This document shows, in pieces, positions 1 to 6,789 of a stretch of 14,647 nt of DNA; position 1 is the stretch's first letter; the number at the start of each line of letters is the position of its first letter. The position numbers and the translations under genes are program-made. The notes under the pieces were generated by a model that made no database searches, was not told the origin of the DNA, and saw only the letters and a list, made by a program, of their open reading frames with translations. Origin of the DNA: Candidatus Ratteibacteria bacterium (lineage in GTDB: Bacteria; Ratteibacteria; UBA8468; B48-G9; DTJG01). The DNA lies in the NCBI GenBank assembly GCA_049971295.1, contig JBMFLH010000051.1, positions 1 to 14,647 of the forward strand. The letters are read 5' to 3'.

Positions 1-32
1 CCAGAACATCTCGGGCATTCTACCTTTATCAT
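1..32 (-). CDS. 5' end of a gene running off the window; N-terminal CxxC zinc-ribbon-like start (MIKVECPRCS...)
   Basis: The reverse complement reads ATG ATA AAG GTA GAA TGC CCG AGA TGT TCT GG from position 32, directly after a strong sigma70-like promoter. Only 10 full codons are visible. Confidence 0.55.
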   Translation of the reverse strand, partial: MIKVECPRCS

Positions 33-38
33 AGCCAC

Positions 39-68
39 ATTATAGCACTTTTTAGCGACTATTTTCAA
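39..68 (-). promoter_or_regulatory. sigma70-type promoter with extended -10 (TTGAAA-18 bp-TATAAT, TGn present), probably leaderless
   Basis: Minus strand: TTGAAA (68-63), TGC (47-45), TATAAT (44-39), then gtggct and ATG at 32. Confidence 0.65.
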
Positions 69-94
69 ACATAACCCTAAAATTTGAAAAATGA

Positions 95-122
95 AACTAA
101 AAGTCCCACGGCAGGGGTGGCA
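95..122 (-). terminator. possible weak intrinsic terminator after the metal permease
   Basis: Minus strand CCAC-ccctgcc-GTGG followed by gacttttagttt, just downstream of the permease stop. The stem is short. Confidence 0.25.
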
Positions 123-129
123 TAATCTT

Positions 130-927
130 TCAGTACCTTATGTGGGATGGGGATTTTCGCAGTTTTATTCCAAGTATTATGAAAAATACCAGGCTTAAAA
201 ACGCAACAATCAATGATGATGTTGAAACATCAAATTTGTATGAAATAATCATACCAGCAACACTTGTCAGTATTCCGGTAATCCATCCCCTGATAAGAAT
301 ACCAGAAGTATTGCTACTTAACAGTTTTCCAATGAGCGCTGGAATAATCAAAAATGAGAAAACCTGAAGAATCCCTGCGATTTGAATGGAATTGACAAGC
401 ATCAGGGCAAAACTGAGAAAAAACAAGAATTCCCATAAGTAGGAATTATCTTCGCCTTTTGAAAGCGCAAAGAATTTTTTCCTGTAAGCAAACTGGAGCA
501 AGCCAATAATTGTGTACAGGATAAACATTGTAAACAAATCCTTGCCTGTAATCCACAGGATATTTCCATTTAAAATGTTTTTCAGTTCTTCAAGTCCATG
601 GGGAGTTCTGTCAAGAAGCAGAATACTTGCAGAAAACGAAAATATGTACAGTACGCCGATGAACGCTTCGATATAAACGACTTTTGATATTCTTCTGAAA
701 TACGCAAGTATTGAAGCGCCAATCACAGCAAATAGTACTCCATAGGTGGATTGTAATGCCTCTTTGCCTGTGTAAATAGCGAAGGCAGCGCCAACAGAAA
801 TCATTTGAGCGAGCGTCAGGTCAACGAAAATAATGCCCCTTTCAAGAACATGCACGCCAAAATATGTGTGAAGCAGTAGCAAAAGAATGCATCCGATAAA
901 CGGAATAAACAGCAGTGATATGTCCAT
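130..927 (-). CDS. metal (Zn/Mn/Fe) ABC transporter permease, ZnuB/MntB (ABC-3) family
   Basis: Multi-TM protein with HTYFGVHVLERGIIFVDLTLAQ, EAFIGVLY and GILQVFSFLIIPA motifs. The start is corrected to ATG at 927 (MDISLL, 265 aa), with SD GGAGGT upstream, 1 nt after the stop of the binding-protein gene. Confidence 0.9.
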   Translation of the reverse strand: MDISLLFIPFIGCILLLLLHTYFGVHVLERGIIFVDLTLAQMISVGAAFAIYTGKEALQSTYGVLFAVIGASILAYFRRISKVVYIEAFIGVLYIFSFSASILLLDRTPHGLEELKNILNGNILWITGKDLFTMFILYTIIGLLQFAYRKKFFALSKGEDNSYLWEFLFFLSFALMLVNSIQIAGILQVFSFLIIPALIGKLLSSNTSGILIRGWITGILTSVAGMIISYKFDVSTSSLIVAFLSLVFFIILGIKLRKSPSHIRY

Positions 928-928
928 G

Positions 929-1828
929 TTATACCTCCGAAAGAAGTGAAATGACTTTGTCCATAAAAGAAAACCAGTCGTCTGTGCCCGGCAAAGAACC
1001 AACATCGTGAGGCACAAGAATTACTTTAAGCCCTGTTTTTTCAGCGACAAAATCAACTGGCTTTTTGGGGCTATAAACATTTGCAAGAATCGCTGCTGGT
1101 TTTGTTTTATTAATGGTATCTATAATTTTCTGGATGTCTCCTGAAGAAGGTGGGATGCCTGGTTTTGCTTCAATGCAACCAACAATCTGGAAATTAAATT
1201 CTTTCGCAAGGTAGGAAAATAGAGTATGATAGGCAACGAATTTTTTTCCTGCAAGATTTGCTGACTTCCAGAGTTTGGTTTTTTCCTGCCACTTCGAATA
1301 AAAATCCTGGTAATTTTTTTTGTAGTATGCCTCGTTTGCAGGATCGATTTTTATCAGTATTTCAGTCATGCCCTGGGCAACTTTTAAAACATTTGAAGGA
1401 GAAAACTGGTAATGTGGATTACCGAGAGGATGGATATCGCCCATGCTTCTATCAACTGATGATGGTTTTTCGATTGGAGTAATAAACCGGGAGCAGTCAA
1501 AATTTCCGGTTTTGCCTGGCTGGATATTGGGATTTTTTGATGATTCTATGATGACTGGGAGATATCCAATTTCAAGGTCAAGTCCATTGTACATTAAGAT
1601 ATCTGCTTTTCTTGCTGCGATAATCAAACTTGGTTTTGCTTCCACATAATGAGGATCCTGGCTTGTTTTGACAAGCGTTGTAACTGAAACATGGTCTTTT
1701 CCAATCTGCTTTGCAAGGTCTGCAATCCAGGGCAGTGTTGCAACAACATTGATTTTTGCAAACAGGTTTGACGAAAACATCATCAGAAAATTTCCTGCCA
1801 GAAAAATTTTAAGAAAATTTTTTTTCAT
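929..1828 (-). CDS. metal ABC transporter substrate-binding protein, ZnuA/TroA (cluster A-I) family
   Basis: Signal peptide and VVATLP start. Metal-ligand motifs QDPHYVEAKPS, DIHPLGNPHY and YHTLFSY, plus EAKPGIPPS. No His-rich loop. SD-like AAGGGGG upstream. Confidence 0.93.
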   Translation of the reverse strand: MKKNFLKIFLAGNFLMMFSSNLFAKINVVATLPWIADLAKQIGKDHVSVTTLVKTSQDPHYVEAKPSLIIAARKADILMYNGLDLEIGYLPVIIESSKNPNIQPGKTGNFDCSRFITPIEKPSSVDRSMGDIHPLGNPHYQFSPSNVLKVAQGMTEILIKIDPANEAYYKKNYQDFYSKWQEKTKLWKSANLAGKKFVAYHTLFSYLAKEFNFQIVGCIEAKPGIPPSSGDIQKIIDTINKTKPAAILANVYSPKKPVDFVAEKTGLKVILVPHDVGSLPGTDDWFSFMDKVISLLSEV

Positions 1829-1840
1829 ATTAGCCCCCTT

Positions 1841-3193
1841 TCAGAAAGTGTGAGCAGCATGTGCTCCAACTCCGCCAATAAATTGTATGAACCATTCATT
1901 ATTTGTTCTTCTGTCTCTGTTGCTTTTATCGTAGTTATACTGAAGCCGTATTTTTGAAAATTCAGAAGGATTGAACTCAACCATTGCTGATGCTCTCCAG
2001 GGTTTGTCTCCAAAGGAAATGTTTGTGCCGTCAAGTTTGTACTGGTCTTTGGATGGTTCAAGAAGGTCGTATCTTGCGCCAAATCCCCATCTTCCAGTTT
2101 GATAAATTGACTGAAGATAAAGACCATCCTGAGCCCTTTTCAAATCCTGAATTGTTTGAGTGGTCGTGTCCAGCAGTTTGCCTTTTTGGTGTCTGAACAT
2201 GTATTCACTTTGAAGAATAAAACTTTTCCACCTTGACGGCTTCCATTTGTAAGTGAATTCAAATCCAATGAGCGTGGAATCTCCTGTGAAAATATGGTCT
2301 TCTTTAATTGAATCTGTCTTTGTTTTTCCTGAGATTACAGAAGGTCCAAAGAGAATCGTTCCGTAGTCGCCCACATCGATTGAAGATTTTATAAATGCGC
2401 TGAATGCGTGCAGTCCACCTGACGCGTCACTTCCAAAAAGAATTTCATTGTCTCCCTGCAGCGCCTCAACTCCAAATTGGGTGTAAATCGGAAGTTGTGG
2501 CAACCATGTTAATTGAATTCCCTTTTCATTGATGCCCTCGTGACCCACAAATGCCCTGTATATAAGAGGCGGGTCAACAAAATTCCAGATATGCGCATGC
2601 TGGCTATTTAATCGTCCGAAACCAGATTTAAATTTACCAATTTTCGCCTGAAGTCCTGCTGGAAGATTTGTCGTGACAAGGTATGCTTCTTCAAGTTCAA
2701 CCCCATCCTCTGTGACTGGAATTGTGGCATAAAGATTGAAAAATGGGTCAACCGGAGCAAAAAGATATAATTCTGCCGCGTGTATGTTGGCGCCTTCTTT
2801 GTGGTCAATGCCTTTTGAAATAAAGCCAGGAATGTTCCACTTTTCAAGTTCATCCCTTTTCAAACTGGAACTGTAACCAAAAGTATCAAGAATCAGTGAG
2901 ATATTGGGGTTGTAGGCGCTTGCTGCACCGAACAGTCCACCTGAAGTATAGGAAGGTTTTTCTTCTGGTTTTACAGGAATTTCTGCTGCCTGTTTTTTTA
3001 TCTGGTCTAATTCTTCCTGAAGTTGTTTGATAATCTCCTGCTGTTTTTGAATTGTCTCCTGCTGTACCTTCAGCATGTCTTCAAGAGATTTTATTCTTTC
3101 GTTGATGTCCTGGCACGTACCAGACGGTGCAAAAGCCAGCCATGATACAAGTAATAGTCCTGAAAATATCTGAGTACTTTTTTTAATTTTCAC
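1841..3193 (-). CDS. outer-membrane beta-barrel associated with metal uptake (family often annotated as zinc-regulated TonB-dependent receptor/porin)
   Basis: Signal peptide and N-terminal coiled coil, then NPNISLILD, VDPFF, LEEAY, GKFKSGFGRLNSQHAHIWNFVD and PSEFSKIRLQY motifs. C-terminus GAHAAHTF ends in Phe. GTG at 3193 is preferred over 3199 because the 3199 codon overlaps the SD AGGAGGT. Confidence 0.8.
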   Translation of the reverse strand: MKIKKSTQIFSGLLLVSWLAFAPSGTCQDINERIKSLEDMLKVQQETIQKQQEIIKQLQEELDQIKKQAAEIPVKPEEKPSYTSGGLFGAASAYNPNISLILDTFGYSSSLKRDELEKWNIPGFISKGIDHKEGANIHAAELYLFAPVDPFFNLYATIPVTEDGVELEEAYLVTTNLPAGLQAKIGKFKSGFGRLNSQHAHIWNFVDPPLIYRAFVGHEGINEKGIQLTWLPQLPIYTQFGVEALQGDNEILFGSDASGGLHAFSAFIKSSIDVGDYGTILFGPSVISGKTKTDSIKEDHIFTGDSTLIGFEFTYKWKPSRWKSFILQSEYMFRHQKGKLLDTTTQTIQDLKRAQDGLYLQSIYQTGRWGFGARYDLLEPSKDQYKLDGTNISFGDKPWRASAMVEFNPSEFSKIRLQYNYDKSNRDRRTNNEWFIQFIGGVGAHAAHTF

Positions 3194-3285
3194 GGTCACC
3201 TCCTGTTGGAATCACAATTAACAGGTGTTCTGCGATATTCAGATTAAAGAGATGTAAAACGATTTTTTAACAGGGTGGACCGCGA
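3190..3285 (-). promoter_or_regulatory. SD-sequestering RNA structure linking the RGPP codons of the leader to the RBS/start of the barrel gene
   Basis: mRNA arm UCGCGGUC-C-ACC-CUGUU (3285-3269) is complementary to AACAG-GA-GGU-GACCGUGA (3207-3190). A second local anti-SD, CACCUGUU (3228-3221), is also present. Confidence 0.6.
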
Positions 3286-3533
3286 GTAAAAGGGCTTTCA
3301 GGATAGGAGTTTTTGGTAAAAGTGGGTCTTATTGATGAAATCGTCCAGTAAACAAAGATGATGAAAAGTGATAAAAACAACTGGAACGAAAACGGCGCAA
3401 AGGCGCTCAAATTTGCGCAGGTTGAACAGTTTGCGTTAAAAGCGCTGACAAAGCAGGAGTGTGAATGGATAAGACTAATGCCTGATATTGCAAGCAGCCC
3501 CAGAAGAGAAAGTATGATAATAATTCTTCTCAT
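3267..3533 (-). CDS. 88-aa leader/arrest peptide, DUF2946-like (signal/TM, HSHSC, CSTC, C-terminal RGPP)
   Basis: Sequence MRRIIIILSLLGLLAISGISLI-HSHSC...CSTC...SPFTRGPPC*. It lies directly upstream of a metal-uptake outer-membrane protein gene. The start at 3533 is set by the promoter position. Confidence 0.75.
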   Translation of the reverse strand: MRRIIIILSLLGLLAISGISLIHSHSCFVSAFNANCSTCANLSAFAPFSFQLFLSLFIIFVYWTISSIRPTFTKNSYPESPFTRGPPC

Positions 3534-3564
3534 ATCAAAAAACATTTTACCTGTGATATGAGAA
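3527..3564. repeat. perfect 11-bp inverted repeat (candidate operator) flanking the -10 box
   Basis: TTCTCATATCA (3527-3537), a 16-nt spacer, then TGATATGAGAA (3554-3564). Confidence 0.6.
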
Positions 3565-3572
3565 TCTGTCAA
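3544..3572 (-). promoter_or_regulatory. near-consensus sigma70 promoter of the metal-uptake operon
   Basis: Minus strand TTGACA (3572-3567), 17 bp, TAAAAT (3549-3544). The ATG at 3533 follows after 10 nt with no SD. Confidence 0.75.
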
Positions 3573-3598
3573 TATGTGCAAAGAAAATATCAATGGTT

Positions 3599-4240
3599 TT
3601 ATTTCTTTGGGTACCCGACTGGTTGGGTCAGGATAATTTTTTGTTCATCTTTTAGATTAAGAATTTTTGCCAGATTATCTCTATCCACAATTCCAAGGAC
3701 GACAGTATTCAATCCTTCTGATGCGCAGAAAAGATAGACGTTCTGGCTGATGAAACCTGTGTCAACTGCTGAATAAAAATCTTTATCTGACTGGGAAGCT
3801 CTGCCCATTTTTGAATAGTCAGCAACATACGCAAGTACAAGAGGCGCTGTTTTTACAAACGCCTGTCTTCCAAAATTTACCCGAAAATCTCCTGATATCA
3901 CGGGCTTCAGGACATTCATTTTAGCGTCATAAACATATACGGCTTTTGGTGTTGCAACATAAATATCTATTTCCTGCCAGTTTGATGCTGATGGAGCGGT
4001 TCTTTTACCTGATTGTGATCTGTTGATGCCAGAAGCAGCCCACAGAAGATTTGAAATGGTCTGATTTGAAAGTTCATTGCTGCTGAATTCTCTCATTGAT
4101 TTTCTTGCACTCAATGCTTCCATCAATGGTTTTCCGCCTGTCATCTGCGGCTTTGGAAGATTGACCGGTTGAATTTCGTTTTCTCCTGCGAAAACAAAAA
4201 CTACAGCAATCAAGATAAACAAACCTAAATATTTTTTCAT
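3599..4240 (-). CDS. nitroreductase-family / SagB-ThcOx-type FMN oxidoreductase with N-terminal signal peptide
   Basis: ALSARKSMREF, LLWAASGINR, RTAPSASNWQEI, DTGFISQNVYLFCASEGL and QPVGYP motifs. Hydrophobic N-terminus MKKYLGLFILIAVVFVFA. SD-like AGGGG upstream. Confidence 0.9.
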   Translation of the reverse strand: MKKYLGLFILIAVVFVFAGENEIQPVNLPKPQMTGGKPLMEALSARKSMREFSSNELSNQTISNLLWAASGINRSQSGKRTAPSASNWQEIDIYVATPKAVYVYDAKMNVLKPVISGDFRVNFGRQAFVKTAPLVLAYVADYSKMGRASQSDKDFYSAVDTGFISQNVYLFCASEGLNTVVLGIVDRDNLAKILNLKDEQKIILTQPVGYPKK

Positions 4241-4323
4241 ATTGCCCCTGTTGAATTAATTGGTCTCATCAAAATACTTGTTGTGTGAACAATTTTGCTT
4301 TGTTTCAAATTTTAGCCAGTTTA

Positions 4324-4352
4324 ATTTTACCATTTTTCTTTTATTTTGTCAC
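4324..4352 (-). promoter_or_regulatory. putative sigma70 promoter for the nitroreductase gene
   Basis: Minus strand GTGACA (4352-4347), 17 bp ending in TGG (extended -10), TAAAAT (4329-4324). Confidence 0.5.
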
Positions 4353-4540
4353 TTTTTTCAATTTTACTGCTTTTTCAACCTTATCCATGTTTTCTTTTTC
4401 CCTTGTTTTTTGCGTAAGAGGATAAAGATGAAGGAGATTTTGACAAAACTTCAAACTCAAAACATAAGGTTTTGTTTCCGATTATACTGAATTTTGATAT
4501 GTCCTGTTCGTTTAATATTGTTTTAGTACTGTGAAAGGTT

Positions 4541-4569
4541 TTGACCTGATTGAAAAACAAAGATAAACT
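4541..4569 (+). promoter_or_regulatory. putative sigma70 promoter for the 4596 gene
   Basis: TTGACC (4541-4546), 17 bp, TAAACT (4564-4569). SD AGGAG at 4584-4588. Confidence 0.55.
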
Positions 4570-4595
4570 ATGTCTCTAAAAACAGGAGAAGAGTT

Positions 4596-5507
4596 ATGAA
4601 AGTAGGATTTTCAGCAATGAAAATAACTCCTGACTTTAGCACGCAAATTGGCGGCGCTGGAACAGGTGAGAAAAGATATTCAACAAGTATCCTTGACGAT
4701 ATTTTTGCAAGGGCAATAGTAATTGAGTCAGAGGGAAAAAAAATTTGTTTTCTGTCCCTGGATGTAACAATTGTTACAGAAGATTACACGAAAAAAATTA
4801 GAAAATTTGCAGAATCCCTTGGTTTTCTACCTGAATCTGTGATGGTTGCTGCTGTCCAGAATCATTCAGCACCATCTCTTGGAAATTTTATGCTTGACCC
4901 AGATTTTCCACAATTACCAGAAAAATTTGAATATGTACGGGGTGGTGAAACAAAAACCTTCCAGTTTATTTTTGAAAAGATCTGTCAGGCAATAAAATCG
5001 GCAAATGAAAGTCTTGTGCCTGTTTTGCCTTCTGCTGGTAGGGCAATTTTTGATGGACTTGCCTTTAACAGGCGCGCTGTAACAAAGGCCGGTAAGGTGA
5101 GAATGCCATGGTTTTATTCAAAAATACAACAGCCGCTTGGTCCTGAGGATATCAGATACATTGAAGGACCTATTGACCCTGAAATTGGAGTTCTCTGTTT
5201 TCAGTTAGAAAATACGAGGTTTCACAGCGGGATACTTCATTTTACCTGTCATCCCGTGAATGTTTTTGCGACAGATTATTATGCAATCTCCTCTGATTGG
5301 CCAGGAGCATGGGTTTATGAACTTGAGAAATTTTTTGAATCAGGATGCTTGATTGCCAATGGGTGTTGTGGAAATATTAACCCCTGGCCAGCATTTCAAC
5401 CAGATTTTTATTCTGATCACAGAAAAATGGGAAGGGAATTTATGGAGAACCAACACCTTGGTACAACTTCTATCTTCAGGGAATATTCTCCTGGTATGCC
5501 GATATGA
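4596..5507 (+). pseudogene. neutral/alkaline ceramidase-like (N-terminal domain) hydrolase, apparently C-terminally truncated near 5435
   Basis: MKVGFSAMKITP, DDIFARAIVIE, QNHSAP, FNRR, GPIDPEIGVL, HFTCHP, ISSDWPG and NGCCGNINP motifs. After DHRKMGR the last ~21 aa overlap another open frame, and the expected C-terminal part appears to be missing. Confidence 0.6.
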
Positions 5508-6406
5508 TGCGCAGTCAGATTCGGAATGGTCCTATTGGAGCATACATAACAACAGCAAGAGGTACATATCCATGTTTTCTGAACCATTTTGTGGTTTATG
5601 AACTTGCAGCAAGGGGTGTTGAACATTTTCACTGGTACAGTTACGGTGAGATGTGGGGCAATGAAAATTACGCTAATGAAATTGTAAGGGATCTATTAAG
5701 AGAATTTGCCATTGTTCATCGAGAATTTGCAGCAGCTGAAGAATCTCTTTATGGCTCTAAGCCAGAAAAAGCAGAAATTGCAATATTATGGACACCTTCT
5801 CAGGAAATTTGGGATACTTCACTTCATCAGGATCTTGTGGCTTTTTATCTGTTGCTTCTTCATTCAAACTATGATTTTGATATCATTTCAAGTTATGATG
5901 TTGATGGCGGGCTATTAAAAAACTATAAGGTTCTTTACATGCCATTCGCATATATTGAAAGAAAGACATTCGATAAAATCAAAGAGTGGGTGTTCAAGGG
6001 TGGAAAACTTATTGTTTATGATGGTTTTTTGAAGGATGAGTATAATAACTCTGGTCTTCTGGAAGATTTTTTGCAGGGCTATCACGCCACTGTTGAGAAA
6101 AAAATTAATATCGGAAGTTTGACACATTTGCGTAATCATACTCTTTTAGACCAGGCAACGAATTTTGATTCTTCAGTAACATTTCCTGTAATATGTCAGA
6201 AGGTAAATATGAAAATTCCTGAGAAGGCAAAAATTTTGCTTATATACAGAGATGGAAAATCAGCAGCATTTGAAATGGCCAAAGGTAAAGGTAAGATTCT
6301 GGTGAGCGGTTTTTTACTCGGGTCAGCATATCAGAGAGATGAGGAGGATAAAGACAATCCTGATTGGTCAAATCTTCCAGTTGGACCACCGGCATTGAAA
6401 AAATGA
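5417..6406 (+). pseudogene. internal fragment of a glycoside hydrolase with GH42-type (class I GATase-like) trimerisation domain
   Basis: LAARGVEHFHWYSYG, AEIAILW, LLHSNYDFDII, LKNYKVLYMP, IKEWVFKGGKLI and GKGKILVSGF motifs. The frame is open from 5417 (…GIYGEPTPWYNFYLQGIFSWYAD-MMRS). The ATG at 5504 has no SD and most of the catalytic barrel is absent. Confidence 0.55.
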
Positions 6407-6789
6407 AGGATACTGGAGACAATGTAGTAAGAATTTGTGCTTATAAGCCATCGTTTAAGACCATTGGCATAGATTTTGATGAAAAGAGATCTCTTTTATT
6501 TGCTGGTTCAAGAATGCCTGATGGATTTGTTTCTGTAATTTATGACGATGGAAAATCATTGAAAGAAATTGCAAGATTAGAGGACAAGGAACTGTGTGGT
6601 ATACACGCTGTAAGATTTTTCAATGACTTTCTTTATGTTGTTGAAGATGGGGTTTCTTATTCTGAATCCGGTTATTGCGTAGAAGAAACCAACACAAGAG
6701 CCATTACATCAAAAGGAAAAAATAGAATCAGCAGATATAAACTTCTGTTTGGTGGTGAAAAATTTTTGAAAACAGTTGAAGTACAATAA
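6364..6789 (+). CDS. hypothetical protein, probably the C-terminal fragment of a beta-propeller (NHL/SMP-30-like blades)
   Basis: Blade-like segments IGIDFDEKRSLLFAG, GIHAVRFFNDFLYVVED and NRISRYKL. It is too short for a full propeller. An alternative start is ATG 6403, overlapping the upstream TGA. Confidence 0.4.
   Translation: MVKSSSWTTGIEKMKDTGDNVVRICAYKPSFKTIGIDFDEKRSLLFAGSRMPDGFVSVIYDDGKSLKEIARLEDKELCGIHAVRFFNDFLYVVEDGVSYSESGYCVEETNTRAITSKGKNRISRYKLLFGGEKFLKTVEVQ

Follow-up and report, generated by a model that had tools for sequence, protein, structure and literature searches.

The locus described here raises the question of how a small open reading frame, placed at the head of what looks like a metal-uptake cassette, might control the genes that follow it. 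The DNA analysed, referred to throughout as the window, is a stretch of 14,647 nucleotides from a Candidatus Ratteibacteria bacterium (GenBank assembly GCA_049971295.1, contig JBMFLH010000051.1). On its minus strand an 88-residue frame, hereafter the leader, precedes genes for a barrel protein, a ZnuA-family metal-binding protein, and a ZnuB-type permease (Table 1). An original prediction had read this frame as a metal-sensing ribosome-arrest peptide that governs a Zn/Mn-type import system. We find that the leader is very probably an arrest leader. The complete reading, in which it forms a cis-acting, metal-released arrest switch for a predicted zinc-import cassette, has about an even chance of being right, its steps not being independent of one another.

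Table 1. Positions in the window of the leader, its predicted control elements, and the genes downstream
Feature	Position	Strand	Basis
Leader ORF, CruR/CutF-like predicted arrest peptide, 88 aa + stop	3267..3533	-	translation, conservation in relatives
Signal or membrane anchor, aa 1-22	3468..3533	-	hydropathy: Kyte-Doolittle 17-residue mean (KD17) up to 2.6
HxH (H23, H25), predicted metal ligands	3459..3467	-	conserved columns
CxxC (C36, C39)	3417..3428	-	44 residues before Arg; conserved
Second hydrophobic stretch, ~aa 46-68	3330..3398	-	KD17 1.9-2.2
RGPP arrest-type motif R84-P87; codons also in predicted anti-SD arm 3285-3269	3273..3284	-	
Sigma70-type promoter, -35 3572-3567, -10 3549-3544	3544..3572	-	11/12 consensus match
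SD 3204-3199 and likely GTG start 3193-3191 of barrel gene	3190..3207	-	predicted pairing with arrest codons
Outer-membrane 'omr'-type barrel protein	1841..3193	-	porin-like Atlas neighbours; synteny with Vibrio campbellii
Cluster A-I metal-binding protein (ZnuA family)	929..1828	-	PF01297, E 7.9e-52
ABC-3 (ZnuB-type) permease	130..927	-	PF00950, E 1e-26

Translation of 3533-3267 confirms the 88-residue frame with every motif that had been ascribed to it: HSHSC at residues 23-27, CSTC at 36-39, and RGPP at 84-87, followed by Cys88, with 44 residues lying between C39 and R84 and the two Pro codons of RGPP at 3278-3273. The rule set for CruR/CutF-like leaders given in PMC9973294 specifies fewer than 150 residues, a PP within the last 15 residues, and a same-strand gene within 1000 nt; here there are 88 residues, a PP at 86-87, and a gap of 73 nt to the barrel gene. 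Such leaders also carry an export signal or anchor, which hydropathy alone indicates for this one, and a Cys/His motif that precedes the arrest motif by about 45 residues, here by 44. They head metal-homeostasis operons, and in the window a promoter-like site and the leader are followed by the barrel, ZnuA, and ABC-3 permease genes. In one respect the leader departs from the described class, in that the downstream genes are not copper genes but are of the zinc-uptake type. Within the 1.89-Mb source genome only four stop-to-stop frames of 50-259 residues end in R[AGSP]PP or RAGP, and the leader alone among them precedes a long same-strand ORF; the occurrence of the motif at this position is more than chance.

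The conservation of the leader was surveyed by anchoring on homologues of the barrel gene and not on the leader itself. Seventeen genome loci were recovered, and a small upstream ORF ending in R[AGSP]PP is present in 15 of the 16 that have upstream DNA. These loci span Ca. Omnitrophota, Thermodesulfovibrionales, Syntrophaceae, Thermoanaerobaculum, and Aminicenantes, among others. The barrel is found in 13 of 61 own and related genomes, several of them overlapping with the 17 loci, and the leader accompanies it in all 13; a profile search of 65 own-phylum genomes returned the same 13 together with one partial match. The best 80 of 216 metagenome loci include 8 that are cut too close, and 69 of the other 72 have a leader within 350 nt by a pattern that required only [RH]xPP. 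In 65 of these 69 leaders a CxxC lies 44-47 residues before the Arg, and the other four have none in the part of the sequence covered. The spacing is likewise 44-47 in 61/61 loci of the de-duplicated barrel-anchored set, which had been pre-filtered for a CxxC 38-50 residues upstream of the RxPP Arg, and 57 of the 61 also have HxH. The collection of upstream frames ahead of barrel homologues, which the original prediction had proposed as a check, upholds its expectation that the motifs would recur at homologous loci. No leader was found at L016, L094, L105, or the V. campbellii cassette. At L072 it sits further upstream, separated from the barrel by about 450 additional nt (upstream of 2979), and at L105, which is without a leader (upstream of 593), the sequence next to the SD still resembles that of loci with a leader. 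In a Sulfurovum cassette (L035:2950-3306) the leader ends in HAPP and not RAPP, with a longer gap after CxxC.

Relatives of the leader came only from profile searches, a word-indexed search having returned 0 matches. A profile of 21 rows retrieved 920 clusters (50% identity) at E up to 0.001, and both motifs are present in 149 of the best 150 clusters plus the query, counts that are partly built into the profile. The motif among the 149 is RAPP in 117, RGPP in 18, RSPP in 11, and RPPP in 3, so that position 2 is limited to A, G, S, or P. This is the experimentally permissive set, as Gly, Ser, and Pro at this position keep arrest in ApdA and ApdP (PMC12992588). The Arg of RAPP/RGPP arrest peptides, in contrast, cannot be replaced. 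In a profile-selected set of 128 rows, CxxC and both Pro residues are found in all 128, the Arg of RxPP in 126, and a His at each HxH column in 125; the two matches that are without the Arg recall the HAPP ending of the Sulfurovum leader.

Membership of the DUF2946 family, which had been put forward as a check by HMM search, was not borne out for the leader protein itself. The PF11162 model gave 0 matches above its gathering cut-off for the leader and across the whole source genome, the leader matched nothing in Pfam, and NCBIfam gave one weak unrelated match. Among the relatives, 54 of 128 have a DUF2946 match with an E-value of 0.1 or lower (best 1.5e-6), and the Atlas neighbours of the leader are a 'putative DUF2946 family protein' (0.93), DUF2946 (0.89), and DUF2607 (0.88). 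Because the leader follows the published rule set and falls below the Pfam threshold, it appears to be a divergent CruR/CutF-like member of the DUF2946 superfamily that lies outside PF11162. The central proposal, that a CruR/CutF-like arrest-type leader heads a ZnuA/ZnuB-type cassette, is supported by comparison of sequences.

A leader with an export signal, metal ligands, and the first place in an operon could also be an ordinary small subunit of the transporter, secreted or membrane-bound, that binds metal and regulates nothing. This is highly improbable. Mean column identity across the family is only 20%, yet RxPP and the spacing between it and CxxC are held constant, and RxPP is generally avoided in proteomes. 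In addition, the related cassette of Vibrio does without a leader, and the codons of the leader are biased to pair with the next Shine-Dalgarno (SD) sequence, as described below.

Two features that had been read into the leader are not shared by the family. The proposed HSHSC ligand group stands as far as H23 and H25 are concerned, both of which are conserved, but C27 is not, and it was rejected as a metal ligand. The second hydrophobic stretch, which had been suggested to couple arrest release to membrane insertion, reaches a KD17 of at least 1.8 in 21/61 barrel-anchored loci and 65/149 profile matches; it was rejected as a family feature and is a lineage trait. At arrest it would lie mostly inside the ribosomal exit tunnel, ending about 20 residues from the P-site, which makes insertion coupling unlikely. 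It is similarly quite improbable that the leader serves to monitor secretion capacity or the periplasmic disulfide state, or the insertion of this segment. Such a role would be in keeping with the first discovery of RAPP/RGPP peptides as Sec/YidC monitors, with the disulfide-driven release invoked in the CutF model (bioRxiv 10.1101/2025.02.05.636593), and with how common the second stretch is in this lineage. However, the downstream genes encode metal transporters and not Sec or Dsb components, the His residues are conserved together with the Cys pair, DsbB was not found in the 92%-complete genome, and the second segment is missing from 40/61 loci.

The arrangement of the DNA before the leader is a further characteristic, absent from the earlier reading. 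The -10 element of the leader promoter ends 10 nt 5' of the ATG and no SD precedes this codon, an arrangement also seen in relatives. As the promoter adjoins the ATG and there is no SD, the leader mRNA is predicted to be leaderless or near-leaderless, with its 5' end near 3537-3533. In a survey of 121 loci, 7 of 128 having been dropped for want of a usable CxxC or start codon, a sigma70-type site of at least 9/12 lies 4-12 nt before the candidate leader start in 38, of which 32 use the first ATG. The controls gave 0/121 for downstream starts and 0.75% of random positions, and an SD of -5 kcal/mol or better is found before 22/121 leaders. Near-leaderless starts also exist as a minority in the source genome, given that 29/1199 long ORFs score at least 10 for a promoter close to the start. 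There is no room for a riboswitch before the leader, and no match to a riboswitch or other RNA family was found with Rfam in window 1-5000. By its promoter-like site the leader is the head of its own operon, though co-transcription from the upstream nitroreductase-family gene may occur. This gene, at 3599-4240 just upstream of the leader, encodes a SagB-like protein with an apparent signal peptide, and the same neighbour is found in L001, L003, L004, and L005; distant loci lack it. Further upstream (4596-6789), a ceramidase-like ORF of 303 aa, which has a 463-aa counterpart in L001, abuts a fragment with a glycoside-hydrolase domain; its shorter length and this junction suggest that the ORF is truncated or rearranged in the window.

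The new element at this locus is a predicted pairing of the arrest codons with the SD and start codon of the barrel gene, a feature likewise absent from the earlier reading. Because of this predicted pairing, stalling would switch uptake on. The RNA that spans the arrest codons and the barrel start folds with a minimum free energy of -26.7 kcal/mol (z -3.31; 1/200 shuffles as good), and in the predicted helix 3285-3269 pairs with 3190-3207. The barrel start is most likely GTG 3193, favoured because the other candidate that was tried, GTG 3199, overlaps the barrel SD.

Cognate arrest-SD duplexes average -15.9 against -12.7 +/- 0.57 for swapped ones in 21 loci, -15.7 against -13.8 +/- 0.33 in 64 de-duplicated loci of 90 (0/10000 permutations), and -15.7 against -14.5 +/- 0.39 in the 46 loci outside the first set (19/10000 permutations). 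The permutation p-values overstate the effect, given the natural complementarity of Pro codons to SDs and the relatedness of the loci, and the barrel start of metagenome loci was picked partly by SD strength. Synonymous shuffles pair worse than the natural codons in 54/64 loci, and in the window the natural value is -21.6 compared with -12.6 +/- 3.0 for such shuffles, 3/200 of which are as good. The first Pro codon is CCU in 47/64 loci, compared with 309/1250 (25%) of barrel-gene Pro codons; this bias is weaker in the wider family (17/37 and 14/30) and could reflect decoding. In 51 short-gap loci, the SD becomes cheaper to open by an average of 2.49 kcal/mol when a ribosome-sized stretch at the arrest site is masked, compared with at most 0.45 kcal/mol at four other offsets, and in the window the reduction is 7.3 kcal/mol. 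Both arms of the helix are conserved in 10 close loci with a variable middle, and the pairing probability between the SD and the arrest region exceeds 0.3 in only 36/64 loci. On balance we consider it probable that the SD helix is the main output of the leader.

The output could instead be of the type reported for CruR, in which a rut site becomes exposed once the ribosome is released and transcription is ended by Rho, with the SD helix being secondary or incidental. Rho is encoded in the genome, C is enriched in the 3' part of the leader (35 C vs 14 G in the window), its C fraction exceeds 0.6 in 52/61 leaders vs 0/61 barrels, and four-fold sites across loci favour C over G (0.68 vs 0.55). 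CruR itself uses a comparable C>G bubble (PMC9426467). Nevertheless, a synonymous C excess is not seen in the window (3 C, 3 G), the gap to the next gene is 73 nt compared with 162 bp in CruR, and both the cognate pairing and the position-specific effect of masking favour the helix, so that Rho as the principal output is decidedly unlikely. Both outputs would act with the same sign and do not exclude each other, and a Rho route may coexist with the preferred SD helix.

The genes under this proposed control encode three transport components. The barrel protein, a frame of 452 aa with an N-terminal coiled coil and a His-containing C-terminus ending in Phe, matches no Pfam family above the cut-off (BBP2, E 0.0098). 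A TonB-dependent receptor would combine a Plug domain with a 22-strand barrel, and no Plug or TonB_dep_Rec match was obtained for this protein; its homologues are elsewhere annotated as 'zinc-regulated TonB-dependent receptor', but Pfam finds no Plug domain. A sequence search of solved structures in the PDB gave no relative, and a single-sequence structure model has a pLDDT of 36.6. The omr protein is widespread, with conserved His motifs in mid-chain and at the C-terminus, and its fold and mode of transport appear undefined. Omp85, like Rho, is encoded in the source genome. In the ZnuA-family protein the metal ligands are His60, His139, His201, and Asp275, conserved in 100/100, 92/93, 90/91, and 81/86 sequences, respectively. 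Its best NCBIfam match is AztC, below the cut-off, and its best PDB match is YcdH, with which it shares His as the third ligand, and not Glu as in YfeA. No ABC ATPase motif was found on the same strand within the fetched flanks of 57 loci with a binding protein and permease (0/57). A second set of binding protein, ATPase, and permease is located on contig C108, and the cassette may borrow an ATPase, for instance from C108, or work without one.

The same three-gene order is found in Vibrio campbellii, with identities of 27-33% (28% for the barrel). From gene order and names, and not from alignment, this cassette is presumed to be orthologous to VP_RS21430-21420, the omr-znuAII-znuBII genes of V. 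parahaemolyticus, which likewise have no ATPase. These genes are reported to belong to the Zur regulon and to be induced 283-1034-fold by zinc limitation (PMC9817125), and a ZnuA homologue, Vpa1307, which by order and names would belong to the same cassette, supports growth under zinc depletion (PMC3794297). In contrast to the window, the V. campbellii cassette has a perfect Zur-type box (0 mismatches) and no leader ORF, although Vibrio provides only a single comparison for such an alternation between Zur box and leader. The leader promoter of the window has no Vibrio-type Zur box (best pattern match, 3 mismatches), nor has any of 21 leader promoters a match better than 3 mismatches, and a different operator is still possible. 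The source genome has one Fur-family gene, which we count against the model.

The genes that follow leaders elsewhere also bear on the identity of the metal. The 128-row profile was run against genomes of the phyla to which three named relatives belong, and matched 30 of 301, 71 of 201, and 57 of 201. In 88 fetched loci the gene after the leader is a barrel homologue in 53, a TonB-dependent-type receptor in 21, ZnuA in 2, an efflux component in 3, a member of another family in 2, and unassigned in 6, with 1 having no downstream DNA; six of these 88 labels were carried over from near-identical neighbours and not scanned. The efflux components, HlyD and OEP, follow family leaders at L131, L191, and L197, where the opposite, CutF-like sign would be needed. 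Some genomes in the phylum of the Thermodesulfovibrionales relative (G440, G508, G526, and G540) hold 3-5 copies of the leader family. At L126:956-3243 a Fur-like gene, a leader, ZnuA, and an ABC ATPase stand in a row, the Fur-like gene and the ATPase being recognised by eye; the leader starts at the end of the regulator gene, and transcriptional and arrest control may coexist there.

The same arrest-release switch could respond to nickel, cobalt, manganese, iron, or copper and not to zinc. His3-Asp binding proteins such as TroA also carry Mn or Fe. Neighbouring genes at L007 and L008, recognised by eye, resemble nickel/cobalt and iron transport genes (CbiM-like and FeoB-like), and 21/88 profile-found loci precede TonB-dependent-type receptors of unknown substrate. 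Many of the leader carriers bear the names of anaerobes, which need much nickel and cobalt. CxxC is the copper ligand in CruR and CutF, and His-rich CutF-like leaders are reported before HupE/UreJ nickel/cobalt genes (PMC9973294). A metal other than zinc is nonetheless unlikely in view of the third His ligand, which is that of the ZnuA-type YcdH and not the Glu of YfeA, the control of the Vibrio cassette by Zur and zinc, and the count of copper chaperones or oxidases among the downstream proteins scanned (0/29). We thus lean towards zinc as the metal that is sensed and imported; for the Zn/Mn-type import originally proposed, the evidence favours zinc over manganese.

With zinc as the preferred metal, the following cycle can be envisaged. 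The leader has a strong promoter 10 nt before its ATG, with no SD and no Zur-type box, which would allow steady near-leaderless expression. The N-terminal anchor would enter SecYEG and, by analogy with ApdA, ApdP, and CruR, the ribosome would stall with Pro86 in the P-site. The stalled ribosome would cover the anti-SD arm, making the barrel SD about 7 kcal/mol cheaper to open by computation, and the barrel, ZnuA, and permease would be translated. In this arrested state HxH would have just cleared the membrane and CxxC, at a distance of 47 residues from the P-site, would have reached the periplasmic mouth of SecY; Zn2+ bridging the His2Cys2 site would pull the chain and free the stall. The ribosome would then terminate, the helix would re-form, and translation would be turned off, at which point Rho may end the untranslated message.

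There is an engineered precedent for such a release, since a His2Cys2 finger frees SecM from arrest in a zinc-dependent manner (PMC4571824). In the experiments reported there the exit tunnel holds about 30 residues, and a free finger exerted its pull only when it lay 20-30 residues from the P-site. At 47 residues a site should consequently pull only if it is tethered across the translocon, and this requirement makes the geometry favour periplasmic sensing, whereas the independence of CruR from its export signal argues the opposite. We tentatively suggest, as a possibility that falls short of an even chance, a natural force sensor that resembles a zinc finger: the His2Cys2 site of the nascent chain, held across the Sec channel, would read periplasmic Zn2+ and pull the chain from its RGPP stall, whereupon the Pro codons would refold onto the next ribosome-binding site. 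Such a sensor would replace Zur for one cassette across several little-studied phyla, and would have a relative in ZrgD of culturable bacteria.

The class of arrest leaders is itself already published, and in the literature that we found metal sensing by such leaders has been shown only for copper. We found no paper on a zinc-responsive arrest leader, on an anti-SD within the RAPP codons of this family, or on ZrgD as an arrest peptide, although published supplements may list the family. A zinc version, if true, would add a second metal to those sensed by nascent chains and represent the natural counterpart of the experiments in which engineered zinc fingers pull on the chain. With it one could also directly test a point left open for CruR and CutF, namely what keeps the spacing at 45 residues and from which side of the membrane the metal is read. 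The overlap of arrest codons with the anti-SD provides a clean and separable prediction that can be approached with synonymous mutations. Finally, as the leader family is large, with its 920 clusters, and mostly unannotated, it may explain metal control in lineages that have no visible operator.

The closest known system is CruR (bp2923, DUF2946) of Bordetella pertussis, in which a CxxC lies 45 residues before RAPP, copper releases the stall, and Rho terminates transcription (PMC9426467); its arrest has been demonstrated (PMC12992588). CruR resembles the leader described here in being the first gene of an uptake operon, in its export signal, in the placing of CxxC about 45 residues before the arrest motif, and in the predicted sign, whereby the stall means on and metal means release and off. 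According to PMC9426467 CruR is copper-specific, works without its export signal, and acts through Rho over a 162-bp gap. In contrast, the present leader has a conserved HxH, an omr-ZnuA-permease cassette, a near-leaderless promoter, and a predicted SD helix in which the arrest codons supply one arm, and gives no match to PF11162.

CutF of Rhodobacter capsulatus has the same 45-residue spacing, and here copper induces the stall, which opens an SD-shielding stem-loop (PMC9973294; bioRxiv 10.1101/2025.02.05.636593). It shares with the present leader the properties of a Sec-exported nascent sensor and an RNA output that shields an SD, which in our case is predicted. CutF is distinguished by its CxxxC, proline repeat, and intergenic stem-loop, and by its sign, as copper turns on a detoxifying oxidase; the genes studied here import metal, and the opposite sign is expected for that reason. 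For CutF-like members with His only, nickel or cobalt has already been suggested (PMC9973294). ApdA, ApdP, SecM, and related peptides (PMC12992588) have in common with the leader an RGPP-type motif near the C-terminus of a small exported protein and the same permissive position 2, but they monitor protein localisation, and no metal site is described for them.

A further parallel is ZrgD (DUF2607), which, like the leader, is a small exported His/Cys RAPP ORF ahead of zinc-uptake genes. Its sequence combines an export signal and a His/Cys cluster with a C-terminal RAPP, and its gene lies immediately ahead of zrgA (PMC12992588 source data; PMC9817125). The source data of PMC12992588 contain 137 RAPP compared with 2 AAPP frames before DUF2796 genes, and at least 9 RAPP upstream frames before genes with the omr-type annotation 'zinc-regulated TonB-dependent receptor'; the paper only lists such zinc-gene pairs, the word zinc being absent from its main text. 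ZrgD is called a protein of unknown function in PMC9817125, where its operon is also placed under Zur. By the features of its sequence, ZrgD is likely to be an arrest leader layered on Zur control.
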